Positions 15,707-34,023 of a DNA stretch of 64,000 nucleotides are shown piece by piece; within the stretch, counting starts at the first letter, position 1; each line of letters opens with the position of its first letter. This stretch comes from Promethearchaeota archaeon (GTDB lineage Archaea > Asgardarchaeota > Lokiarchaeia > Sigyniarchaeales > SOKP01), in contig JAFGOA010000014.1 in the NCBI GenBank assembly GCA_016926735.1, forward strand, positions 1-64,000. Reading direction: 5' to 3'. The translations under genes and the position numbers were made by a program. Below the pieces are notes generated by a model. It searched no databases and was not told the DNA's origin. It worked only from the letters and a program-made list of their open reading frames with translations.

Positions 15707-15722
15707 TAGATAAAAAAAATAA

Positions 15723-16487
15723 TTATTCAATCCTATGTCCACAAATAGGGCATATATTCCACATTTTTTTAATTTTTGAATAACAATTAGGACAATCTTT
15801 TAGATCTGGATCTTTTTCTGTCTGAGGTAATCCAAATATAGTAAGATCTTTCATATCTTTAAAAAATTCTTTTGGATTTTCAATATATTCGGGAGCAATT
15901 TCATTTTGATTATTTGTTTGATCATTATAAATCACAGGTTGTTCTGATTTTATTTCATTGCTAGGTTTGAAATATTCTTCAGGTCTTTGTGGTATATTTT
16001 TTTCTGGTTCATTAAGTTCCTGTTTTTGTACGTCCTTAGGATCTTCCACAGTTGTACCTACTTTGTATATAAAATAGTTTTCCTCATTATTTTCAATAAT
16101 AATTTCTCCATTTCTAAGAATTACTTCAATATAATATATAATCTTTGCACCAATTGGTACTTCGATAATTTCTGCTAAATAATAATCAGTTTTATATTCC
16201 ATTTTTATCTTATACCATGATTTTCCTTGATCCCCGCTAAAAATTAAATTAACTGTATCAATTGGTTCCTTAAAATCTTCTTCAGTAATTTTTGCAACTA
16301 TTTTTACATTCTTTTTTGTAAATAATTCCTTCTCATGTGTCTCTTTTCCTTCTTCCATATCCCACGCAGTACCACAACTAGGACAAGAAACGAACCAATT
16401 TGGATATTCTTTATTACAATTAGAGCATGTCTTTGTAAAGAATCTTGCAGTCTTTATTCCAAGCTTAGATTTTTTTTCTTTACCCAT
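15723..16487 (-). CDS. protein with N- and C-terminal zinc ribbons flanking a small beta domain
   Basis: CSNC...CPSC at the N-terminus; CPNC...CPIC at the C-terminus. Confidence 0.7.
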   Translation of the reverse strand: MGKEKKSKLGIKTARFFTKTCSNCNKEYPNWFVSCPSCGTAWDMEEGKETHEKELFTKKNVKIVAKITEEDFKEPIDTVNLIFSGDQGKSWYKIKMEYKTDYYLAEIIEVPIGAKIIYYIEVILRNGEIIIENNEENYFIYKVGTTVEDPKDVQKQELNEPEKNIPQRPEEYFKPSNEIKSEQPVIYNDQTNNQNEIAPEYIENPKEFFKDMKDLTIFGLPQTEKDPDLKDCPNCYSKIKKMWNICPICGHRIE

Positions 16488-16631
16488 TATTAATAGCCAT
16501 AAAAAATTTTTAATTAAGATAGAAAATTGATTTATCCATATATATTTTCACAAGATTTTATTAAAATCTTGGGAATTTTAATAAAATTCTTTACATTACT
16601 AATGATAAAGCATTATTGAAATAGATTTATT

Positions 16632-17222
16632 ATGATAATTAAAAAAGAATATATTAAAAATATCTTAGATACGTTTGATGATTTAATTGATATAAAGATT
16701 ATTATAAGAGAAAGTTCACCAGATTATAAGCTGAATGATTTATTACAAAATAAATTTATTTATTCATTAAATTCGATAAAGAATAAGCTTAATCCCATTT
16801 TTTCAACATATTTAAGTAATTTTAATTCAAAAAAATATATAAATAATCAAAGAAACTCACTTGATCAAATAAGAAATATTTTCAAAAAGGGAAATATGGC
16901 TATTATATCCTCAAATTCAGCAAAAAAAATATTGAAAAATTTTGGAATAGATCCAAGACAACTGATTGTAACTGGTGGACCTTTTTTTATGGAAGATTAT
17001 GAAAAAATAAATCCTGGGATTGAAAAAAAATGTAATAGATTGTTAGAAGAAATTAAAAATATAGAATGGTATGATAAAGAACTTTATTTTCTGTGTGAAA
17101 ATCAAAATAAATCTGATAAATTGACTTTGAGAAAATTAGATAAAATTTCTGAGTTAATAAAAAAACCAGTTAAAATAATTGAAATTGAATCATGGAATGA
17201 GTTTAAAGAAGATTTAACCTAA
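16632..17222 (+). CDS. DUF2100-like protein
   Basis: SSNSAKKILK.FGIDP..LIVTGGP...EDYEKINP motif. Confidence 0.65.
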   Translation: MIIKKEYIKNILDTFDDLIDIKIIIRESSPDYKLNDLLQNKFIYSLNSIKNKLNPIFSTYLSNFNSKKYINNQRNSLDQIRNIFKKGNMAIISSNSAKKILKNFGIDPRQLIVTGGPFFMEDYEKINPGIEKKCNRLLEEIKNIEWYDKELYFLCENQNKSDKLTLRKLDKISELIKKPVKIIEIESWNEFKEDLT

Positions 17223-18377
17223 AACTAATTTTAAATCCTCAATAAATTTAGTTATATGAGGCCTTCTTACATGAGGCATAATAACTGCTCTTATAAGATT
17301 AAAATCATCAAATTTTCCTAGCATCCAATTAAGATTTTTCAATTTCTGATCAATCTCGCATAAATTATAGCCTCTTTCAGGCGTCATTCCAACAACATTC
17401 ATAACAGGATTCACAACTGTCTTAATTCCTTCTATCTCATCAATTTTATCCACTAAATATTGTGTATTCTCCATACATGTTTTAACTATCTTAATAAATC
17501 CATTTCTTCCTAAATTTTTTAATATCGCCCAAAAAGCAATAACAGTACCCCCAGTCCGAGTACCCACAATATGAAGATGTTTAAAATTACCCCCTGCTAA
17601 ATAAGGAATTTCAAATCCAGTTCTATGTAATATTTTTTCATTTCTTATGAATATTCCTCCTGAAGGGATAATACCCATTCCCATTTTATGAGGATCTGCT
17701 GTTATTGAATCAACTTCATTTACTGAAAAATCCCATTTAGGATATGAATATCCTAAATCATCTAAAAAAGGAAGTACAAATCCACCAAAAGCAGCATCTA
17801 CATGAAAGAAAATATTTTTATCCTTTATTAGATCTCCAATTGCTTCTATAGGATCAACCAATCCTAAAGAAGTTGTTCCTGCTATTCCAATAACCCCACA
17901 AGTATTTTTATTTATTAGTGATTCAAAATGTTCTAAATCTAATTGAAAATTTTTATTCAATCTTGCCTTTCTTAATCTTATATTCATTAAATCAGCAGCT
18001 TTATCAAAAGATATATGTGCTGTTATTGGAAGTACGATTTCAGGATTTTTTATATCTGGTCTTAATTTTTTTGCAATCCTAACCGCAATAAGATTTGATT
18101 CAGATCCTCCTGTTGTAAATGACCCTATTATATCTTTACCCTTAAATAAGGCTCCTATTTCAGATACTAGTTCTTTTTCTAATTCAGCTGTTCCTGGGAA
18201 GAGTCCAGGATCACCTAAATTTTTATTTAAATATTTATAATAAATTTCTTTACCAAAATCAAAAGCATTGGTACACATTGACCCTAAGATCGATCCAGAA
18301 TCATATTCAAAATCATTTGACAATTTTTTTTCTAATATATCTATTATTTCTTCCTTACTTATCCCTTTTTTTAACAT
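17214..18377 (-). CDS. mfnA: PLP-dependent L-tyrosine/L-aspartate decarboxylase
   Basis: ILGSMCT, NLGDPGLFPGT, GGSESN, HVDAAFGG, DPHKMG, GTRTG. Confidence 0.93.
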   Translation of the reverse strand: MLKKGISKEEIIDILEKKLSNDFEYDSGSILGSMCTNAFDFGKEIYYKYLNKNLGDPGLFPGTAELEKELVSEIGALFKGKDIIGSFTTGGSESNLIAVRIAKKLRPDIKNPEIVLPITAHISFDKAADLMNIRLRKARLNKNFQLDLEHFESLINKNTCGVIGIAGTTSLGLVDPIEAIGDLIKDKNIFFHVDAAFGGFVLPFLDDLGYSYPKWDFSVNEVDSITADPHKMGMGIIPSGGIFIRNEKILHRTGFEIPYLAGGNFKHLHIVGTRTGGTVIAFWAILKNLGRNGFIKIVKTCMENTQYLVDKIDEIEGIKTVVNPVMNVVGMTPERGYNLCEIDQKLKNLNWMLGKFDDFNLIRAVIMPHVRRPHITKFIEDLKLVLG

Positions 18378-18557
18378 TTCTGGAGTTCTATAATATTAAC
18401 TATTTTGTAATTTTTATGTAGATTAGAAGATAATCTAATTTAAATAAAGTAATAAGAAAATAATTAAATCTTATTATCTCATCTATTATATTAAAAGATT
18501 TATTTCTTAAATATTATATTTTAATTTATTTTAAAATTATATTTTAATCCTTAGGAT

Positions 18558-18875
18558 TTATTCAAACCTGTAATTATCTCTTCTATCAAATTTTTCAATC
18601 GATTTAAGGATCTCTTGACTCAAATCTACCTTATAATGATTTGCTATACAAATTAAAGCAAATAATGTATCTGCTAATTCTGATGCAATATTATCCTTTA
18701 ATTCACAATTTTTTTTTGGTTTAAAACCCTCTTTTGAGTTTATTTCCCTGCTTAATTCTCCTAATTCTTCTATTAATGCTGCTAACATTGCTAAAGGATG
18801 CCAATAACCTCCATGGTTGGTTATCCAAAGATCAACAAGTTTTTGAATATCAGATAATGTATTATTTTTATTCAT
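18558..18875 (-). CDS. MazG-like nucleotide pyrophosphohydrolase
   Basis: GYWHPLAMLAALIEELGELSREIN...ELADTLFALICIAN...RD..RF. Confidence 0.88.
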   Translation of the reverse strand: MNKNNTLSDIQKLVDLWITNHGGYWHPLAMLAALIEELGELSREINSKEGFKPKKNCELKDNIASELADTLFALICIANHYKVDLSQEILKSIEKFDRRDNYRFE

Positions 18876-18948
18876 AATTCAAACTAAATATAATTTACAT
18901 ATATTTTTAAACAATTAAATAAGAAATAAAAAAAATATAAATAATAAC

Positions 18949-19308
18949 TTACCAGAGATATACTCCCAACGGAAGAATTGTAAAAAGACCTAATAATAAT
19001 AGTCCTAATAACCAATCATTTACTAATTGTTTCTTTTTTTCTCTGTTATTTTTAATATTCCAAACAACTCCAAATGAAAATGCTGAAGCTGTCCCAGTAA
19101 AAGCAAGATATGTAAGACTATAAACATCTGCTTGGATATCTATATATGGTACATCTAAAATAAAATCAAAAATCAACCAAACACCTAAAAAACCAATTAT
19201 GGCTAATAAATATAACCAACCCATAAAAATAATACTTCTTTCTAATCTTATATCTGTTTCATATGAACCAGGAACATTTTGTAAATTCTTCTTTTTATAT
19301 TTTGACAT
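18949..19308 (-). CDS. small membrane protein (3 TM)
   Basis: Three hydrophobic segments in 119 aa. Confidence 0.65.
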   Translation of the reverse strand: MSKYKKKNLQNVPGSYETDIRLERSIIFMGWLYLLAIIGFLGVWLIFDFILDVPYIDIQADVYSLTYLAFTGTASAFSFGVVWNIKNNREKKKQLVNDWLLGLLLLGLFTILPLGVYLW

Positions 19309-19384
19309 CTGAGATCTTGTTTGTATTGATTAATATAATTTTAAATGTATTATCATTCTTAATCTTTTTTTTTATCAGAAAAAT

Positions 19385-19903
19385 TTATCTATTCTTAAGT
19401 TGAACGATCGCTTTTGCAATATCACCATCACAATCCCTTAATACGGCTTCAGCTTCATCTTTTCCTACATTTGCTTGAGCTGCTACTAACATAATATCAT
19501 CTTCTGTGATTTTTGGGCTTACTTCTTCATTATCTATAATTTCATTGGATTCTTCTTCAATTATCTCTAAATTTTGATTAATATTTACCTCACCAGGAGA
19601 AAATTCTTCAGATTCTCCAATAATCTGAAAAATTGATTGTCCCATCTGTTCCATTTGAATCACTTCAGGTTGATTAATTACTATTGTTTTATTAGGCCCC
19701 TCGATAATAACTCTAGTTGCTTCTATTTGATCCATATCAATTCCTTGTTGTTGCATCTTTCTTCGCATTGCTCTTGAGCCATATTGTTGTCCTGGTTTCT
19801 TCTTAACAGGAGTTGGTCTTTTTGGTTTATTATTCTGTTTTTTTTGCATTTCTTTTGGTAATTTCATATTATCACACTTTATTTTTTTTTTTGGTTTTAT
19901 CAT
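19385..19903 (-). CDS. nac: nascent polypeptide-associated complex protein (aNAC)
   Basis: MRRKMQQQGIDM..I.ATRVII NAC domain and C-terminal UBA (EDDIMLVAAQANV...GDIAKAI); the true start is probably downstream of the ORF start. Confidence 0.92.
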   Translation of the reverse strand: MIKPKKKIKCDNMKLPKEMQKKQNNKPKRPTPVKKKPGQQYGSRAMRRKMQQQGIDMDQIEATRVIIEGPNKTIVINQPEVIQMEQMGQSIFQIIGESEEFSPGEVNINQNLEIIEEESNEIIDNEEVSPKITEDDIMLVAAQANVGKDEAEAVLRDCDGDIAKAIVQLKNR

Positions 19904-20389
19904 TTAAGTATCTTTAATTCCTTTTCTTACATCAATAGCAATTCCTCTTTTAAAATTCTTTATAGAATAAATAGGTAACTTTACTCTTCCTAACGCTAAT
20001 AAATCTCCTTTCTCATTTACAATAATTACTTCATCTTGAGGTCTTAAATTTTCATCGATATCTAATACATGTTTACAAAAAACATTTCTTCCTTTCTTTA
20101 TAAATTCAGATACATCATTTTCCACTATAGCTCTTAATCTAGGATAAGATGTCTTCTCAAGAATTTTCTGTGCTGAAAGAATTGATAAGCTAAAAAATCC
20201 ATTTGTTGGTCTAAGAGATAATAATAATTCTTTATCAAGATAGATATATCGAATCTTATCAGTATTTTTTGATCGTTTAATTTCAATATTCTTTTCATCC
20301 TCAAATAAAATATCTGTAATTTCTGGAGAAAATTGATAATCAGAAATTGCTTTGATTTTTCTAAATGCTAATAATTGTTCTACATCCAT
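19904..20389 (-). CDS. PUA-domain RNA-binding protein (like the archaeosine TGT C-terminus)
   Basis: DYQF, S.NT.KIRYI, LR..NGFFSLS, GRNVFCKHV...LRPQDEV..V. Confidence 0.85.
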   Translation of the reverse strand: MDVEQLLAFRKIKAISDYQFSPEITDILFEDEKNIEIKRSKNTDKIRYIYLDKELLLSLRPTNGFFSLSILSAQKILEKTSYPRLRAIVENDVSEFIKKGRNVFCKHVLDIDENLRPQDEVIIVNEKGDLLALGRVKLPIYSIKNFKRGIAIDVRKGIKDT

Positions 20390-20457
20390 TCTTATGTGAA
20401 ATTAAATATAATAATTAATAAAATAAATTATTGAATAAAAAATGTTCAATTTTAAAA

Positions 20458-21669
20458 TTAGGAATATAGTCTTGATTCAATACAATTATTTTTTACTTTA
20501 TTCATAACCTTATCAATTGCATTGAGGAAATCTTCATCCTTTATTATATCAGAATCTCTTCTAATAGCAAACATACCTGCCTCAGTACATATGGCTTTTA
20601 TATCCGCTCCTGTTGTTCCTTCTGTAATTTTAATATATTTATTAAGATTATCTCTATTTTCAATATTTAATTTCCTTATATGAATTTTAAAAATAGATTC
20701 TCTTTCAACTTCATTTGGTATTTGAAATTCTATCATCCGATCAAATCTTCCGGGACGTAGTAAAGCAGGATCTAAAATATCGACTCTATTTGTAGCACCA
20801 ATAATTTTTACATCTCCTCTAGATTCAAAACCATCAAGTTCACTTAATAATTGCATGAGTGTTCTTTGAACCTCTCTATCTCCAGAAGTAGCAATTTTTA
20901 ATCTTTGAGATCCAATAGCATCTAATTCATCAATAAATAAGATAGTTGGTGCTTTTTCTTTTGCCAAATTAAAAATCTCTCTCACTAAACGTGCTCCTTC
21001 TCCAATAAATTTTTGTACCAATTCAGATCCAATTATTCTAATAAATGATGCTTCTGTTTCATGAGCAACTGCTTTTGCTACTAATGTTTTTCCTGTTCCA
21101 GGAGCGCCATGTAATAAAACACCTTTAGGAGGATCTATTCCGATTTTAGCAAATAATTCTGGTTTTTTTAAAGGTAATTCTACAGTTTCTCTCACTTCTA
21201 ATAATTGTTCTTCAAGTCCACCTATATCATTATAAGTTACATCTGGAACTCCATCTATCACTTCCATACCTTTTACAAATGGATCTAATTTTGTTGGTAG
21301 AATTTCCATTATTGCAAATGTTCTCTGATTAAGAGCAACCCTCATACCTGAATATAATTTATCATTCTTTACTTTTCGACTAGCATTTACCACGAAACTT
21401 GGCCCTGTTGAGCTTTTAACTATTGCTCTTCCTTTATTCTCATCTAAAATATCTATTACAGTAGCAGATACTAATGGAGGTTCTCTTAAACGATCGATTT
21501 CATTTCTTAGACTATGTAATTCCTGTTCTAATCTTAATCTTTCAGCATCTAATAATTGCTTTTCTGTTTCTAAATTTCGAAGTCTTTTTTCCAGATGCCT
21601 CGTATAAGTGATTAGATACTCTCCATCTTTTGTTTCTTTTTCCTTTTTTTTGATCTTTGTTGTTGTCAA
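20458..21669 (-). CDS. pan: proteasome-activating nucleotidase
   Basis: N-terminal coiled coil and OB domain, [35 protein letters not shown]-terminal HbYX motif (LYS); TTG start. Confidence 0.96.
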
Positions 21670-21746
21670 ATAGAATTTACCATATTTATTTTTTATTTTT
21701 TCTCTTATTTTATTAAAGATCCTCTACAAATTTATATTTATTTATA

Positions 21747-21772
21747 TCTCCTTTTGTGTTTAAAAAAGGAGA
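21747..21772. promoter_or_regulatory. 9-bp inverted repeat upstream of pan
   Basis: TCTCCTTTT-N8-AAAAGGAGA; function not established. Confidence 0.4.
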
Positions 21773-22138
21773 GCTATAAAAAATTTTTACTTTATATTAT
21801 ATCAACTGTTTATTAAAAAAACTTATAATTTCCTATATAAATCAAAAATTCTTTCACTCTCTTCTATTTTAAATTGCTATTTTTCTCACTGAAAGATAGT
21901 TGATGAAAGCAATTGTTGGGATAACTCTGTAAATTCAAAGAATGCGTTGTTAAAGATGTAAGTCAAGATTATGAATTATATCATTTTATATCAATTATAT
22001 CTGTTTGAAAGAACGGAGAAAAAAAGAAAAGAAACTAGTCTTTTAAAAAAAAATTTCCTTGAAAGAAGGTGTTTTCTTGAGTAATCATGATAAATTATAA
22101 GAGTTACGAATATAATATTTACATAAATAAAATAAAAA

Positions 22139-22681
22139 TTGAAAATCATGTCTCATAATAAAAAACATGATTTAGATAAAGAATGCCCAATATGTGGAGG
22201 AATTATTTGGGGTAGAGGATATCCTACTCTGATCGAAGGAGCTAAAATTGATGTTTGTCAAAATTGTGCTCAACATGGGAAAAAAATCTATTCTCCTCAA
22301 AAAAAAACCTTTAATAAGATCAATTATTCAAATCAAAAGAAAATACCCTCTAAAAAAGTTCAAGGTTTTTCAGAAAGGACAACAAAACCTGAATTAGAGA
22401 TTGTTGATGACTATTTCGAAAAAATCCGTAAAATAAGACAAAAAAATAACCTAACTCAAGAGCAATTTGCTCAAACTATTCACGAAAAAGAATCATTGAT
22501 AAAAAGAATTGAAGCTAATAAAGTAGTCCCCTCTTTAGAATTAGCAAAAAAAATTGAAAATGAATATCAAATCAAATTGATACATCAAGAAGATGTTGCA
22601 GATGTAAAAACAGATAAATATATGAAAAAAAATAAGGGTTCTACGCTTGGAGATCTTGCGTTTATAAAAAAGAAAAAATAA
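22139..22681 (+). CDS. mbf1: multiprotein bridging factor aMBF1
   Basis: CPICG...IEGAKIDVCQNC zinc ribbon, HTH (LTQEQFA...EKESLIKRIE), TLGDL tail. Confidence 0.92.
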   Translation: MKIMSHNKKHDLDKECPICGGIIWGRGYPTLIEGAKIDVCQNCAQHGKKIYSPQKKTFNKINYSNQKKIPSKKVQGFSERTTKPELEIVDDYFEKIRKIRQKNNLTQEQFAQTIHEKESLIKRIEANKVVPSLELAKKIENEYQIKLIHQEDVADVKTDKYMKKNKGSTLGDLAFIKKKK

Positions 22682-22690
22682 TAAATAATG

Positions 22691-23278
22691 TTAATCAATA
22701 GATAATTTTATTTTTTTATTTTGTACTATTTTTTCCTTTAAGAATTCTTTTATATCTTGATTTTCCTGAGCTACTAATTTGCCTCCACATTCTGGGCAAC
22801 GAAAATTTAACTCAAATGCTTCACTGAAGGGATATTTTATATTATTATCATCACATTCTTCACAAGCAAAAAAATAATTTTCTCTTTCATATTCTAATCT
22901 ATCTCTTAGTTTTTGTCTTAAGAGATTTTTTTTTTCCAATAAGATTTCCTCAATAAGATCAAATTCATGCCACCAGAAATAAATAAACCACCCTGTTGAT
23001 TTATCTCGTATCCGTCGAAATTGTGCTAATTTTTCTGAATATAATTTATATAAGGTTTTGCGAACAGTATTTAACTTTAAAATTTCTTCATCATTTGGCT
23101 CAAAATCTTTTTGACCTTTAATTCTTTCTTTTATATTTTCAGTAATATCCTCATCAGTAATATCTTCATCTACTGAATTTAATAATTCTTTTCCTACTTC
23201 TATTGCAATTTCTCCACCTATGATATATAAAAAAGATTGCAATAAAGGATCAAGTTCAGTCATATTTGGTTTACTCAT
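22691..23278 (-). CDS. tfe: transcription factor E alpha
   Basis: wHTH (ITDEDI...LNTVRKTLYKLY...TGWFIYFW) and C..C...FSEAFELNFRCPECG. Confidence 0.93.
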   Translation of the reverse strand: MSKPNMTELDPLLQSFLYIIGGEIAIEVGKELLNSVDEDITDEDITENIKERIKGQKDFEPNDEEILKLNTVRKTLYKLYSEKLAQFRRIRDKSTGWFIYFWWHEFDLIEEILLEKKNLLRQKLRDRLEYERENYFFACEECDDNNIKYPFSEAFELNFRCPECGGKLVAQENQDIKEFLKEKIVQNKKIKLSID

Positions 23279-23312
23279 ATAAAGTGATATATTATGTTAA
23301 ATCTTTAATATA

Positions 23313-24101
23313 TTATACTATAATAGAATATTGTTTTTCATAAGATTCATCATCAATTGTTACCGTTCGAATGAGTTTGCCTTTTCTTATTGCCATAATT
23401 CTCAGCATCATAGAATTCTTTTCATTTTTTGGTAATTCAAGATCTTCAATTTTATAATTATTCAATATAGTAATTTTTTTCCAATTTTCATTTAATTCCG
23501 ATTTAAAATCCCTTATTAGATTCTCAATAACTTTTTCAAGATTATTTTTAGTATTTGGAATGTCTCCTTTACAAAAGCCTATTCTTTGAGCTATATCATC
23601 TTCTTCAGGTTTCTTTTTTGATGGTTGAGGCAATCTTTTATTAGTCGTAACTTTGCTTGATTTATCTGCGGCAACACATGATAATAATAAATATCCAGAT
23701 TCTCTAATTATTTCTATTGCTTTTAATAATACTGTTTTATCTACTTCTCCTTTTATATCTGCTTTATAATTTTTTGTTTTTCCTGTTGATGCTTTTAATT
23801 TCCAATGGAGACCTATTTCTTTAAGTGTATCATTAATATCTCTTCCTGTAAAAAGAAGCCCCGTTACTGAAATACTGTCGCCAGGTATTGCTTCTACAAC
23901 AAACTCTTGTATAATATCTTCATACTCTAATGATGCTTTGAATGAAATCTTGGATGATGTTCTGCGAATCTCAATTGCTGGTCCAATAAATATTCCTTTT
24001 GAAAAACGATAAAAATGACGATGAACATCCATATGTTCTTTAGCAGGATTTTTTAATATAGGATTTTCTATAATTTGGTTTAAAAAATGCATATTTATCA
24101 A
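23313..24101 (-). CDS. hypothetical protein
   Basis: 262-aa ORF co-oriented with tfe; no family recognised. Confidence 0.65.
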   Translation of the reverse strand: MINMHFLNQIIENPILKNPAKEHMDVHRHFYRFSKGIFIGPAIEIRRTSSKISFKASLEYEDIIQEFVVEAIPGDSISVTGLLFTGRDINDTLKEIGLHWKLKASTGKTKNYKADIKGEVDKTVLLKAIEIIRESGYLLLSCVAADKSSKVTTNKRLPQPSKKKPEEDDIAQRIGFCKGDIPNTKNNLEKVIENLIRDFKSELNENWKKITILNNYKIEDLELPKNEKNSMMLRIMAIRKGKLIRTVTIDDESYEKQYSIIV

Positions 24102-24394
24102 TTCTTTACTATATTCAATATTCTATACTGTTAATATATTAGATAAAGGACTCATAACTTTAAACTTTTATTGTAGTAATTAATTGCTTTTTCCAGTTAA
24201 TATCCTAAAAATCATGATGAAATAGTAGAAGAATTACTCAAGAATTATCTTTTTTTATACTAGTTTCTAGATCTGTTCCAATATTTAACAACAGATAGAT
24301 TATGTTTTTTTTTTATTATAATTATATAACTATTAGTAAATTTAAAATTTAAAAATACATTAATATTGCTGTAAATAATAACTTTAGATTTAGA

Positions 24395-24610
24395 TTGGTT
24401 TTTTACATGTTAAGTCAAATTACAGATCCTTTACTATGGAGTTTAGCTTGGTTATTCATCATCATGGGGATGATTGTTTTTATACTATTACTTGTATATG
24501 TAAAATATGGAAGAGAGTTATCTATTAAATATTCTATAATATTCATTTTAATAGCTTCTGTACTTTTAGCATTTTCAATTCATTTCTTTCTACTAAGCTT
24601 TGGGATATAA
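24395..24610 (+). CDS. small 2-TM membrane protein
   Basis: Two hydrophobic helices; the start is probably the ATG at 24407. Confidence 0.55.
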   Translation: MVFYMLSQITDPLLWSLAWLFIIMGMIVFILLLVYVKYGRELSIKYSIIFILIASVLLAFSIHFFLLSFGI

Positions 24611-24734
24611 TATACTAAATATTACTTTTTCTTCTATTTTTCAAAATATAATTTTTAATGTTAAGGTTTAAAAAAAATGTAATCTGTAACTTTATAATTA
24701 TCTCTAAAAATAATTAACAGGTTAGAAATATAAA

Positions 24735-25187
24735 ATGTTACTTCAAAATAATGATACAATAATTTATGTTCTGGCTATATTAATAGCTACAGTCATTATA
24801 GGACTAATAATATACATTACCGTAATTCTTGTAGAATCAAAACATAAAGCTTCAGATAAAGCTTTATTGATTTTTCTATTAGCTCTTATAATTGTGGTTG
24901 TTATACCGATTCTTTTAGCAGTCATTGCTACAGTTTTAGATGCAATTGGAGACCCTTTAACTCAATTAAGAGATCCCCCCACACATAATTTCTTATTATA
25001 TTTGGTTCCGATTTTTGGATTCTTGTTGATTTTGGTTTGTACCAAATTTTTGATCGATCTTGATTGGAGTTCAGCATTATGGATTGCATTGTTAGCTATA
25101 TTTTTCCTATATATAATATTTACTGTAATTCCTGAATTATATACATTTATATGGGAGTTGGCTGGCCAGGGTCCACCCCCAATATAG
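24735..25187 (+). CDS. 4-TM membrane protein
   Basis: Four hydrophobic helices in 150 aa. Confidence 0.65.
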   Translation: MLLQNNDTIIYVLAILIATVIIGLIIYITVILVESKHKASDKALLIFLLALIIVVVIPILLAVIATVLDAIGDPLTQLRDPPTHNFLLYLVPIFGFLLILVCTKFLIDLDWSSALWIALLAIFFLYIIFTVIPELYTFIWELAGQGPPPI

Positions 25188-25289
25188 TTTAATATTAAAT
25201 TTTTTTTCTTTTTTTCTTAATAAAATTGAATTTACAAATAATTTAAAAAAAGCAAAATAAAAAGATATAAAAAATTTTGACAATTTAAA

Positions 25290-28200
25290 TTATATTTTTT
25301 CTTTTAATTTAAGTCTTGGAGCTAATCCTAATGACATCATTTCTTGAAGAAGTAATTTAAAAGCATAAGAGCAAATTACCTTTGAGATTGTTGTTCCTTC
25401 ACTACACACCGGACAATAGCGTTTATCTCGATTTCGATCATAAACAGCTAAAAGACCACATTTTTCACATACTAATATTATTGTTTTATCTGATTCATCA
25501 AGAAGTCTTTCTTTCAATAATAAAGCAGAACCATGACCAACTAAACAATCTCTTTCCATTTCTCCAAATCTTAACCCTCCTTCTCTGGCTCGACCTTCTG
25601 TTGGTTGTCGAGTTAAAATCTGAACAGGTCCCCTAGCTCTTGCATGGAGTTTATCTGCAACAAGATGATATAACTTTTGATAATAAATTGGAGCGCAATA
25701 AATTCCTGCTTCATATTTTCTTCCTGTAATCCCATTATACATTGTTTCTCTACCATTAAATTCAAACCCTGCTTTAACTAATTGTTCCTGTAATTCTGTT
25801 ATATTTTTCCACTCAAAAGCAGTAGCATCTCCTAATTTACCGGTATTACAAGCTATTTTTCCACTAATACCTTCAAATAATTGTCCTAAGGTCATTCTTG
25901 ATGGCATTGCATGGGGATTAATTATAATATCTGGGATAACTCCTGATGATGTAAAAGGCATATCTGCTTCATCAACCATAAGACCAAGTACTCCTTTTTG
26001 ACCATGTCTTGAGGAAAATTTATCTCCTAATTCAGGAATTCTAAGATCTCTAACTTTTATCTTTACAAGTTTATTTCCATCAACTGTCTCTGATATAAGT
26101 ACTGTATCAACAATTCCTTTTTCATTGTGTCTCATATTTTTCGAAGTTTCACGTCTATTTGGTTGCATTAATTCAAATTCTTCATATGATTTTATGAATC
26201 TAGGTGGTGAAGTTCTTCCAATTAGTACATCTCCTCCATTAACTTTTGTTTCTGGTTCGATTATCCCATCGTTTTCTGATAATAGACGATATGATTCTGC
26301 TGATTTAAATCCTCGAACCCCCCTCTCCGGAATCTCAAATTTATCAACTTCTCCTCCAGGGTATTTTCGTTCTTCTGCATCATACGTTCTGAAAAAATGA
26401 CTTCTAGCAAGCCCTCGCTCTATTGAAGCTTTATTTATTATAATAGCATCTTCAATATTAAAACCTTCAAAACTCATCATAGCGATTAAGAAATTCTGCC
26501 CTGCAGGTCTTTTATTAAATCCTACAATTTCCATTGGACTTGTTTTCACTAATGGTTGTTGTGGATAATGTAATGTGTGCCCCCTTGTATCAAGCCTTAA
26601 ATGCATATTTGCTGCAAATAATCCTAAAGCTTGCTTAACCATACCTGCTTCATAAGTGTTTCTTGGAGATTGATTATGTTCTGGAAAGGGGATAATTGAA
26701 GCGCAAATTCCTAGAATTGCTGCGGGTGATATCTCTAAATGGGTATGTTCTGGTTTTACCTCCTCCTCAAACATTGCTATATATGCATTTTCTTCTTCTT
26801 CAGCATCTAAATACTCTATAATTCCTTTATCAATAAGATCTGACCAACCCAACTTTCCTTGTCCTATTTTTTCAACATAATCGATCGTGATCTGTGATTT
26901 CATATTTCTTAGTATCAATAAAGGTCTTGTAGCTCTCCCAGCATCACAATTAATCTGAATTTCTTTTGAATCACGATAATATCCTATATTAACATATTGT
27001 GCGATTTCTCCTCTTCTACGTTTCTCTCTAATTTCTCTAATAAACGCATTGTATTTCTGGTGGATTCCAACTAATTTTCCATTGAGAAATACTTTAACTT
27101 TTTCTCCCTTTACATTTTTTACTTCATTAATTGGAACTACACCTAAATCAACTAAAATATTTTCAATAATTCTCGCATCAGAACCTACAGAAATAATAGA
27201 TGATAATCCAAGATTTTTTACAAGACCGCAATTTGGACCTTCCGGTGTCTCTGCAGGACAAATTTTACCCCATTGTGTTGGATGAAGATCTCGGGCTTCA
27301 AAATGTGGTTGAGAACGACTTAATGGTGAAATTACTCTTCTGAGGTGACTTAATGTTCCAACATGATTTGTACGATTTAAAAGTTGGCTTACTCCTGCTT
27401 TTCCCCCCACCCAATTTCCTGTTGCTAAAGCATGTCTGATTCTTTCAGTGATAACATCTGCTCTTACTGCAGTTTTTATGTTTGGAGCTCTACCTCTTAC
27501 AGCTGTACGTTCAAGTTGATATTTTATATCTTTTACAAGGTTGAGAAATGCAACCCTAAATAGAGATGTAAATAAATCTCCTGCAAGTTTTAAACGTTTA
27601 TTTGCATAATGATCTTTATCATCTGGTTCTCTAAGGGTTAATGCCAATTCCATTACCTTTTGAGCCATTTGACCTAAATAATAAGATTTCTTAATTCGAT
27701 CTTCTTCATTATTTCCAATATGTGGAAGAAGATATCTATCTAATACTTGTAATGCTCTTCTGATACGATAATCTTTTGTTTGTCCTATAGCTACTCTTTT
27801 TCCAATATAATCAAGAGCGTTTTGTTGAGATTTTTTAGGATCTTTTAAAACCTGTATTTCTGAAGCAACATCTATAACAGGGATTAATTCTTTTTGAATC
27901 TCCTCGTTCTCAGATATGGCTGTAAAGATTTCGCGATCAGAATGAAGTCCTAAAGCTCGCATTAAGATTGCTAATGGAATTTTACCTGGAACAGAGGGAA
28001 ATGAAACCCTTAAATTACCATCTTTTTTTCTTTCAATTGTAACTGGTGCTCTGAAACCACTTCTTGTAGAAAATACCTTAGCTTGATGAGTTGCACTTGA
28101 ACTCCTACTTGCCTCCTCTGCAAGAATCCGATTGGGAGCTAAATCTTCTTGAGTTACTAAAACTCGTTCTGTTCCATTTATTATAAAATATCCACCAGGA

Positions 28201-28693
28201 TCTAAAGGATCTTCTCCTTTATTTATTAATTCTTGTTCTGAAATATGTTCTAATGGACATCGACAACTTTTCAACATTATTGGAATTTTACCAATATATA
28301 TTTCAAGAGTCTCTTCAGGTTCTTCTCTTTGAGTTCTTTCATCGATAGTAATTGGAGTCATTTCTAAAGTTATGTCTGCAGCATAACTTAGTTCTCGAAT
28401 TCTAGCTTCAATTGGAGTTATCTCCATTGTAGCGCCGTCAGCTTCTCGAACTTTTGGTTTTCCTACATTTATTTTACCGAATTTGATTTTAAAGCCGGGT
28501 ATTTCCTGTAAAATCATGAAATATGATTTAATATATCAGGTACAACTTCCCCGCTTTCATCAACTATTTGTTGCATTTCATTTTCGATAAAATCATTATA
28601 TGAATCCAAATGTTGTCGAACTAAGCCTTTTTCATCAAATAGACTCTTAAGTACTACCCATTTATCCTCATTAGATAATTTTTCAATGCTCAT
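25290..28693 (-). CDS. rpoB: DNA-directed RNA polymerase subunit B (fused B''/B' type), two exons: 28693-28535 and 28502-25290, 1123 aa after splicing
   Basis: The track ORF 25290..28517 has GGYFIINGTERV, GDKFSSRHGQKG and GGLRFGEMERD but lacks the N-terminus. The conserved N-terminus (MSIEK...GLVRQHLDSYNDFI...GEVVPD) lies in another frame at 28693-28535. Confidence 0.95.
28503..28534 (-). other. candidate 32-nt bulge-helix-bulge mRNA intron in rpoB
   Basis: mRNA reads GTA-CCTG-AT^A-TA-TT-AAATCAT-ATTTC-ATGATTT-TA-CAGG-AA^A-TAC: outer helix, 4-bp central helix, two 3-nt bulges and an inner hairpin. Excision gives in-frame V-P-D-I-P-G. Confidence 0.85.
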
Positions 28694-28736
28694 AGTATTA
28701 TCCTAATTAGATTAAATTAATTAAAAAGAAAAGTCT

Positions 28737-28994
28737 TTAAACCTTTTCTTTAATGACAAATCTGTAATAATATATTTGAGAGACTGTTGTATCAGAATCT
28801 CTTATAATTTTAATAACATCTCCTTCTTTTGCTCCAATTGCAATCGCAACTGGATCTTTCTCAAATATTTGGGGAAGATCTGTTAATTGAATTTTATATT
28901 TTGCTAACAGATCTTCAGTCTCAGATTTAGTTAAAAGAATATGCTTCGGTACTAATTTATGAAGAAGCACATCCACTCTTTTTTTCTTAGTCAA
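28737..28994 (-). CDS. rpoH: RNA polymerase subunit H (Rpo5)
   Basis: HKLVPKH..L...LPQI...DPVA..IGAK.GDVIKI.R...YYRFV; directly upstream of rpoB. Confidence 0.96.
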   Translation of the reverse strand: MTKKKRVDVLLHKLVPKHILLTKSETEDLLAKYKIQLTDLPQIFEKDPVAIAIGAKEGDVIKIIRDSDTTVSQIYYYRFVIKEKV

Positions 28995-29296
28995 GGAAAT
29001 ATCCTCATTTTAAAATTAATATTAATAAGAATGTATTTCTAAAAAGTTTTTTTATTTTATTTATTTCGAGGTTTTTTTTTAACTTATTTAATTCTAAAAT
29101 TCTTGGTGGAAAAAATCTTTATTTTCTGTAATTGGTATAAAAATTAAGAAGAGATATATTTTATAATATTAAGCTATACTATTAATCAATTGATTTCAGA
29201 GAATAAATAGATTCCAAATAGTATCGAAATCTTATCAGATATAAAAAAAAAAAAAAATATAAAAAAAAATATACAAATCTAGTTTGTAAAATTACC

Positions 29297-30223
29297 TTAG
29301 TTTTGAATATCTCTGTTCTTAAAATATAAAAATCCTGAAAATAGAATGCATAATCCCATTGTAAGCACTATTATAAAAGAGATTATTGGATGGACATAAT
29401 TGGTTTCAACTGGAACTGATCCTGAATATTTCGCTATTCCCATTGTCATAACATGTTGAAGTAGATCAGGTGAAAGATTGAGTACTCCCTTTAACATGGA
29501 GTAAAGGAGATTTACAAAATGATAATGAATATCAACCCAATATAAATAAAATTGTTCATAAGGGGGATTCCCATCGGATGAGACTAAAAGGAACATTTTC
29601 ATAAATGGAAATATGAGAAAAAATACCATTAAAATCATCAATGGGATGAAAAGAGCATTTCTAGGTTTAGACACTAAGCACGAGATACCTATAGTAACAC
29701 TTTGAAATATAAAGAGTACCAGTGTCCAATTCAAAAGATTTATTATATAAAAGAGAAAGATATCTTGGAATGGAAATCTCAAATATATGCTTATACATAT
29801 AATACTTAGAGATGATGATATTATTATTAATCCAAATATAAGACTCGCAAAAAACTTAGATAGAAATATATTCCTTCTTGAAATGGGATAGCTTACTAAG
29901 GTGAGCATTGTACCTTGGTTAACTTCCGCAGAGATTAAAGGAGCACTATTTAAAGATATAATAATCAGTAATGTAGGCATATAGATAAGATAAAAAACGA
30001 GGAAAAATGTTCCTTCCATAATCGAGGAATTAGTAGTCAATCCATTAGTATCGATACTAAAAGCTAATATTATAGGAATAAATAAGAGTACTAGTATTCC
30101 CCCTATTAATCTTGGAAGTGTGCCTATATCCCCAAATAATGTCTTCTTAAAAATTTCAATTGTAGGATTCGATTTTCCCCTATTGGTTAGCTCGAATTGT
30201 TCTGTGTTTGTATTTTCTGTCAT
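29297..30223 (-). CDS. ABC-2 type transporter permease
   Basis: About 6 TM segments; ISAEVNQGTM..LVSYPISR..IFLSKF motif. Confidence 0.85.
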   Translation of the reverse strand: MTENTNTEQFELTNRGKSNPTIEIFKKTLFGDIGTLPRLIGGILVLLFIPIILAFSIDTNGLTTNSSIMEGTFFLVFYLIYMPTLLIIISLNSAPLISAEVNQGTMLTLVSYPISRRNIFLSKFFASLIFGLIIISSSLSIICISIYLRFPFQDIFLFYIINLLNWTLVLFIFQSVTIGISCLVSKPRNALFIPLMILMVFFLIFPFMKMFLLVSSDGNPPYEQFYLYWVDIHYHFVNLLYSMLKGVLNLSPDLLQHVMTMGIAKYSGSVPVETNYVHPIISFIIVLTMGLCILFSGFLYFKNRDIQN

Positions 30224-30225
30224 AA

Positions 30226-31206
30226 TTATATCCCCCTAAAATTATCATTCATCATTTCTAAAAATATATCTTCTAAAGTGAACTCCTCTTGGGAAAATTT
30301 CTCTAATAAGATGTTATTATTAATGAGGATTTTCGGTACTTTTTGCTTTAGTGTATGAGTATCGCTAGGGATAATATGAATATTTAGACCTCGAGCATCA
30401 ATCCATACTTTTTCAATAAACTCCTGATTTTCTAAGAGCTTTAACGCTTCTTTGTTTGAGTTAGTATTTAATATATATACATTATTTGCTTTTGAGTGCG
30501 TTTCTTTAATATTTTCAATTTTATTTGTAAGCACAATTTTCCCTTTATTGATAATCGTGATATAATCGCACATTTGCTCAATCTCAGATAATACATGGCT
30601 TGACACAAAAACACAAATATTTTTTGATAGTGCTCGAATTTCTTTAATAATCTCAGCACGACCTACGGGATCTAGATTTGAAGTAGGCTCATCTAAAATA
30701 AGCACGTGTGGTTCTTTTATTAACGCCGAAGCTAAAGCTATTTTCTGCTTCATCCCTCTGGAATAGGTTTTTATCTTTCTATTTTTTGCTTCTGTTAAAT
30801 TAAACTGCTTTAACAACTCTTTGGTCTTTTCTATTGCTTTTTCTTTACCAAATCCGCTAACTCTCCCAAAATATTGTAGATATTGCTCTCCTGTCATTCT
30901 ACCATAAAGTGCTGGATCTTGAGGGAGAAATCCTATGAACTTTTTTGCATCTTGAGATCCTGCATTATTTCCTTTTATCTTAGCTTGTCCATTTGTAATG
31001 GAAATCGCCCCAACTAGCATATTAATTGTTGATGATTTACCTGCTCCATTAGGTCCTAAAAATCCATGAACACCTTTTTTAACAAATAAATTTATCTCAT
31101 CAACCGCAGTTATTTTTTGTTCTCCTTTACCATATATTTTTGTTAGCTCTTTACTCCAAATTTCCAATGAATTTGGATTAATATTCATACTTTTTACTTT
31201 AAGCAT
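30226..31206 (-). CDS. ABC transporter ATP-binding protein
   Basis: GPNGAGKS, YSRGMKQK, ILDEPT, SSH. Confidence 0.93.
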   Translation of the reverse strand: MLKVKSMNINPNSLEIWSKELTKIYGKGEQKITAVDEINLFVKKGVHGFLGPNGAGKSSTINMLVGAISITNGQAKIKGNNAGSQDAKKFIGFLPQDPALYGRMTGEQYLQYFGRVSGFGKEKAIEKTKELLKQFNLTEAKNRKIKTYSRGMKQKIALASALIKEPHVLILDEPTSNLDPVGRAEIIKEIRALSKNICVFVSSHVLSEIEQMCDYITIINKGKIVLTNKIENIKETHSKANNVYILNTNSNKEALKLLENQEFIEKVWIDARGLNIHIIPSDTHTLKQKVPKILINNNILLEKFSQEEFTLEDIFLEMMNDNFRGI

Positions 31207-31361
31207 AATCTTATCATGAATTTTTTTCTTTTCTTTATATTTAGTCTACAATATTATTTAAATATATAAAGAACAAAAAGTAATTTCAAATATACTCTTG
31301 TTCTTTTCTAACACACATCATAAATGTATATTACATTACCTATATTGAAATAATTATAGCA

Positions 31362-31655
31362 TTAGACAATCAAATCTTTTATAATTTTACTAAAGATTTT
31401 CCTCTCCTTTTGAGAAATTTCCCTACTATTCGTACTAAAATTACAGTAAATATTATAATCCTCTTCCTTTGAATCCTTTAATATCCATAAGTTATCTTTT
31501 ATAATTTTATTTTGTTTTGCTTCAAGAATATTTAGTAATTGATTTAACGTGTCAGGTATTTTTCTTTCATATTCCTTTTTAAAATATATCTCAGAGAAAA
31601 TACCTTTAATTAATTGTATGTAAATTAATTTTTCATTTGGAATTTTAATATTCAT
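31362..31655 (-). CDS. hypothetical protein
   Basis: 97-aa ORF with a 4-nt overlap with the upstream ORF. Confidence 0.5.
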   Translation of the reverse strand: MNIKIPNEKLIYIQLIKGIFSEIYFKKEYERKIPDTLNQLLNILEAKQNKIIKDNLWILKDSKEEDYNIYCNFSTNSREISQKERKIFSKIIKDLIV

Positions 31656-31966
31656 AAATTCTCATCTATTTTAGTAATATTTTCAGCATTTTTCTTATCT
31701 TCCATTATATTTCTGTAATAAATTAGAAGTTCACCCATGAGACTTAGTTTACCTTCAAGTATTTCAGGACAATGTTTTTCAACGATTCTAAATGTAGTTG
31801 TAAGTGTTCTTAATATAATTTCACTAAGATCAAAAAACTTTTTGATTGTTTGTACACATAATTTTCTAATCTTAACGGGATAACTTTTCTCCTTTATTTG
31901 ATAAATTCGACATCCCTTATCTATTAAATCCAAAGTTATCGCATCTAATTCAATTTTTGCCTTCAT
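31652..31966 (-). CDS. hypothetical protein
   Basis: 104-aa ORF translationally coupled to 31362..31655. Confidence 0.5.
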   Translation of the reverse strand: MKAKIELDAITLDLIDKGCRIYQIKEKSYPVKIRKLCVQTIKKFFDLSEIILRTLTTTFRIVEKHCPEILEGKLSLMGELLIYYRNIMEDKKNAENITKIDENL

Positions 31967-32189
31967 AATTTAGTCTTTTGTATTTTGGTATAATATTATG
32001 ATAATTCATAATTCGAAATATCTGATCATATAAATAGAAATACTCCTATTTAAATATTATACTTTCTCATAAATCGTATTATTGGTCTTCATAATACGTA
32101 AATATATTGAAAAGAAAAATAGAGTATTTAAATCATTAAAATTATATATTTTTTGAGAACGAATTTTAAAAATCGAGATTATAACAATA

Positions 32190-32450
32190 ATGAAGATTAA
32201 AAAACTCCTGAAATACATTGATATACTATTATTCCTCTCTAACATCGATAAGGTTGAGCTAAGGATCATTTCTGAGAAGTTCGACATCAGTTATCAAACA
32301 ATCCATAGTTTAATCGAGAAATGGAAAGATGAGGGATATGTTGAGAGGAAAAGAAAGGAAATCTTAATTCTTGGTGGCGATAAGTATGAATATAAAATAA
32401 CTGAGAAAGGAAAAAAGACAATTCAATTATTAAAAAGAAAATTGAACTAA
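32190..32450 (+). CDS. small winged-helix DNA-binding protein (MarR/PadR-like)
   Basis: ISEKFDISYQTIHSLIEKWKDEGYVER...YKITEKGK. Confidence 0.75.
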   Translation: MKIKKLLKYIDILLFLSNIDKVELRIISEKFDISYQTIHSLIEKWKDEGYVERKRKEILILGGDKYEYKITEKGKKTIQLLKRKLN

Positions 32451-32594
32451 TCTTTCTTATATCTAATATTTAAAATTAATAAGCAAACCACATTGAAAAA
32501 AAAGCTAATAATGCTTAATTCTCATATAAAGTTATTCTTGTCATGATTGAAAAAAATTAAATCAGCTTCAAAAAAGTTATGAAATTTAAATAGA

Positions 32595-32792
32595 CTACTT
32601 TTTTTCTTCAAATTTTGGAACAAACCATAATTCATATGCTTTTTTTATGCATAAACGTGCAACTTCAGTATTTTGCTTGATTCCCAGATTTTTCTTAATT
32701 TTATGAAAAAAATCATATAATGGTTGATCATCCTTCTCTGAGAGGTTAAGTCTAATCATTATATCTGGACTTTTTTCTTTTTTTTTAGCCAT
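32595..32792 (-). CDS. small ribbon-helix-helix-like DNA-binding protein
   Basis: IMIRLNL strand, then two helices (FFHKIKKNLGI..NTEVARLCIKKAY). Confidence 0.6.
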   Translation of the reverse strand: MAKKKEKSPDIMIRLNLSEKDDQPLYDFFHKIKKNLGIKQNTEVARLCIKKAYELWFVPKFEEKK

Positions 32793-32840
32793 AATTATTG
32801 AATTGTTTTTTATTATAATAAATTTTTTGTTAATTTAGGA

Positions 32841-32970
32841 TGGTTTATTCATTTCTGTCCATTTTTATCCATTTTTATCCAAAGACTTATAAATGAAAAA
32901 ATCATAGTAATCTTAGCACGATTTTGTATAAATTATAATAATTATTAGAGAAAAGGACAGAAAGGAATAA
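32841..32970. promoter_or_regulatory. putative operator array between divergent regulators
   Basis: Tandem 10-mers ATTTCTGTCC/ATTTTTATCC/ATTTTTATCC (32851-32880); 15/16 inverted repeat TTATTCATTTCTGTCC (32845-32860) vs GGACAGAAAGGAATAA (32955-32970). Confidence 0.55.
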
Positions 32971-33035
32971 TCAAAGATTCTAAAAATACAGTATTGCAGT
33001 ATACTCTATTCTCAATCTTAATTCAAGATTAATAG

Positions 33036-33563
33036 GTGAAAAATATGAATTTGGAATCATTTCTTGTAAAAATTAAAAGAGATTTAGACATACTAAAGAT
33101 AATTAGCTTAATATGTAATTCTAAGCAAATTACTCTTTCAGATTTAAAAAGTCAAGTCAATATTCCATATTCAACAATTTATCGATTTTTAGAATTGATG
33201 GTAAAAAATAATTATCTTGTAAAGACTAAAAGAAGAGACAATGAAAATCCATCTAATATTTATATAATTGATACAAAATTAGAGATTTATAAAGATATAG
33301 TTGCAGAACTATTTCATAAGAACTTATCTGGAAAATCCTCTTTTCTGGGGTATTCAATAATCAAAAAAAAGATTTTCCTTAGCCAAATTTTAGAGGAAAT
33401 AAATAGTTGTCTAAAAGAATGGGTAGATAGAGTAAATAAAGAAATTGAACTTGGTAATTTAAATCATCTTTCAGTTTTAAATCACTATGCTATTATTCCC
33501 TATAATAGACTATGGGACTATTTTGAAGAGATTGAATTCCTGAGAAAAGTAGATGGTCTCTAA
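33036..33563 (+). CDS. winged-helix transcriptional regulator
   Basis: ITLSDLKSQVNIPYSTIYRFLELMVKNNYL HTH. Confidence 0.7.
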   Translation: MKNMNLESFLVKIKRDLDILKIISLICNSKQITLSDLKSQVNIPYSTIYRFLELMVKNNYLVKTKRRDNENPSNIYIIDTKLEIYKDIVAELFHKNLSGKSSFLGYSIIKKKIFLSQILEEINSCLKEWVDRVNKEIELGNLNHLSVLNHYAIIPYNRLWDYFEEIEFLRKVDGL

Positions 33564-34023
33564 TAAAAAAAGAGGAATTTTGTGTGATAAATTCGTAAAA
33601 AAATCTCTTTTTTACATAAGCATAACTGATCTTTTACACACTAATAGATTTTTTTTTATAACAGTATTCTCACTAATGGAAATTAAAATTAGTATCATTT
33701 AAATAAAATAATATCAAAGATATATTAAAAACTGACAAAAATATTGAGAATTTCCGTACTCTTATTCTTTATAGTTATTTGAATTATGCTAGCTAATGAT
33801 TATAGGCGTGATAATTGGTACTCTATAAAATTATGTCTAATGGGAATTTATCTTATTTCTCAATGCACCTATCGAAAAAATAACGAAAATAAATTAATTA
33901 ATTCCCTCTCAATTAGTCAGCTTATCTATTTAAAAGTCATAATTATTTTATTTTTTCTTTTAAATACTACGAAATGTTATTTATTAAAAATTTAGACCAA
34001 AAATAAAAAAATAGGTTATTGAC

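Follow-up and report, generated by a model that had tools for sequence, protein, structure and literature searches.

The gene for subunit B of RNA polymerase (rpoB) in a Loki-type Asgard archaeon, Promethearchaeota archaeon (GenBank assembly GCA_016926735.1), is interrupted near its 5' end by 32 nucleotides that are best read as a bulge-helix-bulge (BHB) intron. The insert lies at positions 28534–28503 on the minus strand of the window, meaning the whole stretch of 64,000 nucleotides analysed here (positions 1 to 64,000 of contig JAFGOA010000014.1), and is proposed, with a probability of about 0.85, to be removed from the rpoB mRNA by the tRNA splicing endonuclease (EndA) and an RtcB-type ligase. 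It very probably extends a known but very rare kind of element, the BHB intron in an archaeal coding gene, to an essential Asgard gene. The genome holding the window (G000) is a 3.88-Mb assembly of 238 contigs with 26% G+C and 99.3% completeness; G001, G002 and G003 denote genomes of the same genus, and L035, L036 and L037 denote metagenome loci.

Translation of the locus divides rpoB between two open reading frames (ORFs) in different frames of the minus strand. The upstream ORF (28693..28514) encodes 59 amino acids (MSIEKLSNEDKW...ESGEVVPDILNHIS, followed by a stop) and the downstream ORF (28517..25290) encodes 1075 amino acids, starting MILQEIPGFKIKFGK... The Pfam family RNA_pol_Rpb2_1 is split accordingly, with profile positions 1–28 in the first ORF and 41–203 in the second, which also holds Rpb2 domains 2–7. 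Removal of the insert joins ...GEVVPD directly to IPGFK... and yields an RpoB of 53 + 1070 = 1123 amino acids, the exact length of a homologue that is 95% identical (P0001). These results substantiate the initial annotation, made from the letters and their ORFs without database searches, which had described a conserved 53-codon RpoB N-terminus lying out of frame with the rest of the gene and running into TGA, a seamless 1123-residue product after removal, and a gene that gene callers would miss; rpoB is called as separate products of 59 and 1075 amino acids. Used as a query, residues 1–400 of the long ORF gave rpoB as the single match in G000.

The same 400 residues were searched against 41 related genomes. 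The open frame is 1081 amino acids long in G000, G001 and G002, and it reads through the insert site in all 21 genomes of other genera in the same family that gave a match, measuring 1120–1145 amino acids in 20 of them and ending early, at 578 amino acids, in one locus. The third congener, G003, which is 89% complete, gave no match in this search. When the junction was translated in 30 loci, the sequence ...E(V/I)(V/I)PDIPGFK... was unbroken in every family member from another genus, and PDIP(G/D/Q) is kept in 40 of 40 database homologues compared at the N-terminus. A DNA alignment of three interrupted and nine intronless genes contains a single 32-column gap between ...CCTGAT and ATACCC..., the clean indel relative to related genomes that the initial annotation had anticipated.

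A search in which the flanking codons were written in degenerate form around a gap of 14–44 nucleotides recovered the insert from genome contigs of G001 and G002 (two loci) and from three metagenome contigs (L035, L036 and L037). Contigs from an independent salt-marsh run (X2) cover positions 27746–28886 with 21 substitutions and no gaps, so that the insert is spanned by independent DNA, and the region is also covered, with no difference, in the likely source run. Because it recurs in the genomes of three species of one genus, in all three metagenome loci and in the X2 contig, the insert is genuine DNA and neither an assembly artefact nor part of a dead gene. The concern that it might be an assembly error or a decaying pseudogene arises from the source, a metagenome-assembled genome in 238 contigs, but beyond this recurrence rpoB has no second match in the genome and both exons are open and conserved as protein across diverged lineages, making such an origin extremely improbable. 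Exon 1 in particular has diverged as DNA and is conserved as protein in all intron bearers, L035 included. A further candidate explanation, that the insert is a repeated or mobile element, was rejected. A blastn-short search of the 32 nucleotides against the whole G000 genome returned the insert itself and one 19-nucleotide partial match (C4:68551-68569); this match, which has no second hairpin arm and falls within an open frame of the opposite strand, was taken as chance.

The insert and its flanks were compared with the BHB motif using a checker that requires helices of 4 bp (central), 3 bp (outer) and 2 bp (inner) and bulges of 3 nucleotides, with G–U pairs allowed. A strict motif (hBHBh') was returned, in which 28535 is the last base of exon 1 and 28534–28503 is the intron. 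Its elements (Table 1) are those first described: a GTA/TAC outer helix, a CCTG/CAGG central helix, the bulges ATA and AAA, and an inner TA/TA helix with a 7-bp hairpin. The cut rule for such motifs places cleavage between the second and third bases of each bulge (PMC2738675). Cuts at these points would join CCT GAT to ATA CCC and restore PDIPG, as the initial annotation had predicted, and this is the sequence of all uninterrupted homologues examined.

The strict motif is common in G000, with 245,282 matches over lengths of 12–110 nucleotides; at length 32 its frequency is 3.0e-4 per position and strand. Its frequency in this AT-rich genome means that the motif alone proves little. With the exon flanks held fixed, 709 of 1,000,000 random 32-mers of genome composition passed at these cut sites, as did 59 of 200,000 shuffles of the insert. 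The evidential weight lies in the position of the predicted motif, a strict BHB falling exactly on indel boundaries that were set independently by homology.

Three distinct forms of the insert were found. The G000 type is common to G000, G002 and L036; the G001 type (G001 and L037) carries four changes in the insert plus one at the last base of exon 1 (GAT>GAC, synonymous); and the L035 form is 31 nucleotides long, with approximately six changes and a 1-nucleotide deletion. The CCTG/CAGG helix, both 3-nucleotide bulges and the 9-bp inner helix plus hairpin are kept in all three. Single-sequence folds indicate that the hairpin is maintained by one A-U>U-A double change and by re-pairing around the internal bulge, and the minimum free energy (MFE) structure of L035 itself contains the central helix with three unpaired bases on each side. 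Across the variants 91.7% of cells are paired, compared with 27–44% in slid controls. The colinear product of cuts made by the BHB rule matches the uninterrupted relatives in the 32-nucleotide and 31-nucleotide variants alike, and in the G001-type and L035 forms, as read from the letters, no other cut yields PDIPG, a shift of one base giving PDLPG or PEIPG.

These variants also bear on the possibility that the ribosome, instead of the splicing machinery, deals with the insert, either by a programmed -1 frameshift within it or by a hop over the hairpin from ATA 28534–28532 to ATA 28502–28500. Translational bypassing elements of the latter kind occur in phage T4 gene 60 and, as 'byps', in the mitochondria of Magnusiomyces, and they resemble the rpoB insert in forming a short untranslated hairpin gap in a coding sequence that leaves no trace in the protein. 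In G000 the gap does contain a hairpin, and ATA follows both junctions, so that a hop would likewise give PDIPG. Bypassing elements, however, have no BHB geometry and require matched take-off and landing codons, and this match is lost in two of the three rpoB variants, the codons being TTA/ATA in the G001 type (after GAC) and TTA/ATC in L035. Since the insert is 32 nucleotides long in some genomes and 31 in another, its frame is not conserved, and comparison of the three variants identified no conserved peptide encoded by it. The 31-nucleotide form keeps the BHB and hairpin while changing the frame, which argues against both a programmed frameshift and a translated insert; the two lengths would need opposite shifts (-1 and +1), with no slippery site in common, and read-through would place approximately ten residues in an invariant motif. 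Recoding is considered very unlikely on these grounds.

Further inserts of the same kind were sought by scanning the genome for strict BHB motifs whose removal joins two otherwise broken open frames, each of at least 40 codons, a design that is blind to relaxed motifs, positions near gene ends and inserts longer than 110 nucleotides. The scan gave 2237 loose candidates, which were ranked by constrained folding energy per base. Among inserts of 18–48 nucleotides with bulges starting with A, the top three stood apart from the others, namely those in an AIR-synthase-family (AIRS) gene (contig C62), rpoB and nadE (contig C143). The 16 top-ranked pairs of the 243 short-insert loci listed were compared with Pfam, identifying one clear split domain (nadE) and one probable (the AIRS-family gene, later confirmed in relatives). 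The other 14 pairs were discarded, as they contain no split domain and show either two unrelated families (eRF1/radical SAM, CbiZ/CobS, Ras/racemase and LigT/HAD among others) or, on at least one side, no family match.

The nadE insert (C143:3079-3050, minus strand) is a 30-nucleotide strict BHB between TKYGD and GG of a single motif, and the Pfam family NAD_synthase is divided exactly across it, with positions 2–143 ending ...GYFTKYGD on one side and positions 144–242 beginning GGVDLEP... on the other. G011, from a different genus, has the insert too, and its hairpin there shows compensatory changes. No ATG, GTG or TTG occurs in the downstream part of nadE before codon 65, and a split gene therefore cannot rescue nadE. 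A second, truncated N-terminal half of nadE, approximately 55% identical to the first, lies immediately upstream of the interrupted gene (C143 ~4010-3588, minus strand); it ends ...GYFTKY followed by a stop and is without a C-terminal half of its own. The tandem arrangement is also present in G003, and G001 and G002 each have one uninterrupted nadE. The second half may be the remnant of a gene replacement or of a partial duplication.

The insert in the AIRS-family gene (C62:12420-12448, plus strand) is 29 nucleotides long and has a textbook hBHBh' as its MFE structure. The gene encodes approximately 470 amino acids, its downstream piece matches the AIRS profile from position 43 onwards, and its matches to thiL-, hypE- and selD-like families are weak, all falling under the curated cut-offs. 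Of 30 loci, 7 carry an insert of 29–30 nucleotides at this position. They span five genera and comprise G000, G002 and G003 (not G001) together with one genome apiece from four other genera that are each represented by two or three genomes, and nearly all other loci hold uninterrupted orthologues with open frames of 456–508 amino acids. Consensus folding of the seven copies with RNAalifold gave an exact hBHBh' with outer and central helices of 10 and 4 bp, 3-nucleotide bulges, a hairpin and three doubly changed pairs; folded singly, five of six copies had hBHBh' as the MFE. With these sister inserts in nadE and the AIRS-family gene, BHB splicing becomes the economical reading for the rpoB mRNA too.

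The genome's own EndA, which the initial annotation had invoked, is present as two subunit genes (C33, 203 amino acids, and C100, 202 amino acids), each with both PF01974 and PF02778, that is, an N-terminal domain and a catalytic-type C-terminal domain. Compared with fused EndA models, one of the two ORFs corresponds to their C-terminal half and its partner to their N-terminal half, with a weak match to 'subunit beta'. An (alpha-beta)2 type of EndA with an L1 loop has been assigned to Asgard archaea (PMC5829648), and the domain content and alignment of the two ORFs fit this type.

In the proposed mechanism, GUA-CCUG of the first exon would pair with CAGG of the intron and UAC of the second exon in the rpoB transcript, and the short inner helix and hairpin would close the opposite side of the motif. 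This would leave the 3-nucleotide bulges AUA and AAA on opposite strands, 4 bp apart. The splicing endonuclease, probably a heteromer of the C33 and C100 proteins, would cut after the second base of each bulge, and an RtcB-type ligase would join ...CCU GAU to AUA CCC... The expected products are an mRNA for the 1123-residue subunit B carrying the PDIPGF motif and a 32-nucleotide intron, either linear or circular.

Every sequence-level prediction of the BHB-intron interpretation that could be examined was borne out in silico. Several points nevertheless weigh against it. Cleavage and ligation of the rpoB mRNA are themselves deduced from DNA; the two metatranscriptome runs of the source study (X21 and X22) yielded no record of the locus, a result that is neutral as evidence. 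The unconstrained MFE structure of the G000 form (-17.9 kcal/mol, z = -2.95) is not the exact BHB: its outer pairs are somewhat shifted, and the BHB fold lies 1.5 kcal/mol higher, or 4.8 kcal/mol higher when every helix is forced. The outer helix has just 3 bp and contains a U–C mismatch in L035, giving a relaxed form of the motif. Covariation in rpoB is not significant, as the three variants provide one doubly changed pair and the observed score is reached by 320 of 500 shuffles. Neither an hmm search nor tblastn with the RtcB of a relative found RtcB (PF01139) in the 238-contig G000 assembly; since all three congeners and 11 of the 13 genomes searched have RtcB, this absence is most likely an assembly gap.

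The remaining point against the intron concerns a start codon in the insert and leads to the main rival, in which rpoB is a split gene encoding a 59-residue N-terminal polypeptide (stop TGA 28516–28514) and a 1075-residue polypeptide re-initiated at ATG 28517–28515, the two assembling non-covalently. Split RNA polymerase subunits, B'/B'' and A'/A'', exist in other archaea, and an in-frame ATG lies five codons before exon 2 in all three variants, overlapping the stop as ATGA in both 32-nucleotide types (G000 and G001) as it would in a translationally coupled split gene. This ATGA coupling is lost, however, in the 31-nucleotide form, in which the upstream frame stays open until a stop 13 nucleotides into exon 2, and no purine-rich ribosome-binding motif is visible by eye in the 20 nucleotides before the ATG. 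The break would also fall inside the PDIPGF motif, which is unbroken in 40 of the 40 homologues listed. A split gene leaves unexplained both the upkeep of the BHB and hairpin by compensatory changes and the coincidence of the cut sites with the indel boundaries, and it is unworkable at least for the sister insert in nadE, where a start codon before codon 65 is lacking. It is judged improbable, and the BHB intron is preferred for rpoB.

The closest known counterpart is the intron of crenarchaeal cbf5, reportedly described by Watanabe in 2002 and Yoshinari in 2006. In Desulfurococcales and Sulfolobales the cbf5 pre-mRNA carries an intron with a BHB or BHB-like motif that is tied to a hetero-oligomeric EndA and has been gained and lost in a patchy manner, and most of these introns are termed 'unconventional' BHB (Yokobori 2009, PMC2738675). 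The rpoB insert resembles it in being a short BHB intron in coding sequence with the same cut rule, a predicted hetero-oligomeric EndA and a patchy distribution. It differs in its strict hBHBh' motif, where the cbf5 motif is mostly unconventional; in its host, cbf5 encoding a pseudouridine synthase of hyperthermophilic Crenarchaeota whereas rpoB belongs to a Loki-type Asgard archaeon with 26% G+C; in the presence of at least two more putative coding-gene introns, those of nadE and the AIRS-family gene, in the same genome; and in the kind of evidence, as cbf5 splicing has been demonstrated by cDNA and the rpoB case is read from DNA.

Another mRNA substrate of the tRNA splicing endonuclease, beyond tRNA and rRNA, is HVO_1309 of Haloferax volcanii, which has a BHB intron in its 5' untranslated region that was validated in vivo and in vitro (PMC7714728). 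In this case the intron is in an untranslated leader and, unlike that of rpoB, interrupts no reading frame. According to the same paper, no archaeal coding sequence other than cbf5 had been reported by 2020 to contain a BHB intron (PMC7714728), in agreement with the statement of the initial annotation that archaeal coding introns are very rare, with cbf5 as the classic case. Asgard tRNA genes have been described as containing non-canonical and multiple BHB introns (bioRxiv 10.64898/2026.10.13.758758). These share with the rpoB insert the presumed machinery and the motif, as well as the repeated gain of short inserts in related Asgard genomes, but they interrupt tRNA genes instead of coding genes, and the words 'mRNA', 'cbf5' and 'polymerase' are absent from that preprint's text. 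A full-text literature search, in which subscription journals were not fully covered, found no report that describes a BHB intron for rpoB or for any protein-coding gene of Asgard archaea.

If spliced as proposed, an essential single-copy core gene would depend on the tRNA-splicing machinery in the archaeal group closest to eukaryotes. At least three putative coding-gene introns in one genome would also allow a comparative study of gain and loss at fixed sites. On the practical side, split or truncated rpoB calls affect RpoB-based marker phylogenies and estimates of genome completeness.

The distribution of the rpoB intron may reflect either vertical descent with losses or lateral spread. By blastn, exon 2 of L035 is closest to intronless genera, with 83% identity to G022 compared with 79% to G000, and in a tree of 477 nucleotides, which was largely unresolved, L035 did not group with the g1 genus. 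A single clade of the four intron bearers was neither rejected nor supported by the approximately unbiased (AU) test (p = 0.059). The AIRS-gene and nadE introns are equally patchy across genera. It may tentatively be suggested, at somewhat less than even odds, that this family of Loki-type Asgard archaea maintains a small population of BHB mini-introns of approximately 30 nucleotides, gained and lost at fixed sites of coding genes (rpoB, nadE and the AIRS-family gene) in a patchy pattern over genera, and that splicing of mRNA by EndA and RtcB is routine in it. Were this true, such splicing would belong to ordinary gene expression among prokaryotes closely related to eukaryotes, and the introns would spread or be lost, for example, by reverse splicing with recombination or by gene conversion between lineages.

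Table 1. Features of the interrupted rpoB gene, its proposed BHB motif and the adjoining rpoH gene; positions are those of the window.
Feature	Position	Strand	Basis or remark
rpoH (RNA polymerase subunit H, Rpb5 C-terminal domain)	28737..28994	-	ORF; Pfam PF01191, E = 3e-26; adjoins rpoB upstream
rpoB exon 1, 53 codons, start ATG to ...GEVVPD	28535..28693	-	ORF; Rpb2_1 profile positions 1–28
Outer helix h, 5' strand GTA, exon 1	28541..28543	-	Pairs with TAC 28501–28499; one of three pairs mismatched in L035
Central 4-bp helix H, 5' strand CCTG, exon 1	28537..28540	-	Pairs with CAGG 28508–28505; four of four pairs invariant in three variants
5' bulge ATA	28534..28536	-	Predicted cut 28535/28534
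32-nucleotide insert, proposed BHB intron	28503..28534	-	Frame shifted; TGA 28516–28514 in exon-1 frame
Inner helix h' and hairpin: TA/TA, 2-nucleotide bulge TT, 7-bp stem AAATCAT/ATGATTT, loop ATTTC	28509..28533	-	Folds
ATG in exon-2 frame, hairpin 3' arm	28515..28517	-	Overlaps exon-1-frame TGA as ATGA; start that a split gene would need
Central helix H, 3' strand CAGG, intron	28505..28508	-	Motif checker
3' bulge AAA	28502..28504	-	Predicted cut 28503/28502
Outer helix h, 3' strand TAC, exon 2	28499..28501	-	Motif checker
rpoB exon 2, 1070 codons and stop, begins IPGFKIKFGK	25290..28502	-	Pfam Rpb2 domains 1–7; 1070 open codons past junction

ARAGORN found no tRNA genes in the window. Around the interrupted gene, rpoA is not adjacent to rpoH and rpoB (positions 14000–34000 of the window), and an ABC-2 transporter pair lies upstream of the two. 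Downstream of rpoB are a small membrane-like ORF on the opposite strand, a TFIIE-alpha-like gene (TFE-alpha-like), a PAN-type proteasomal AAA ATPase, a TGT_C2/PUA protein and NAC. In three related genomes (G004, G006 and G025), rtcB is located on the same contig as rpoB, at a distance of 17–24 kb.

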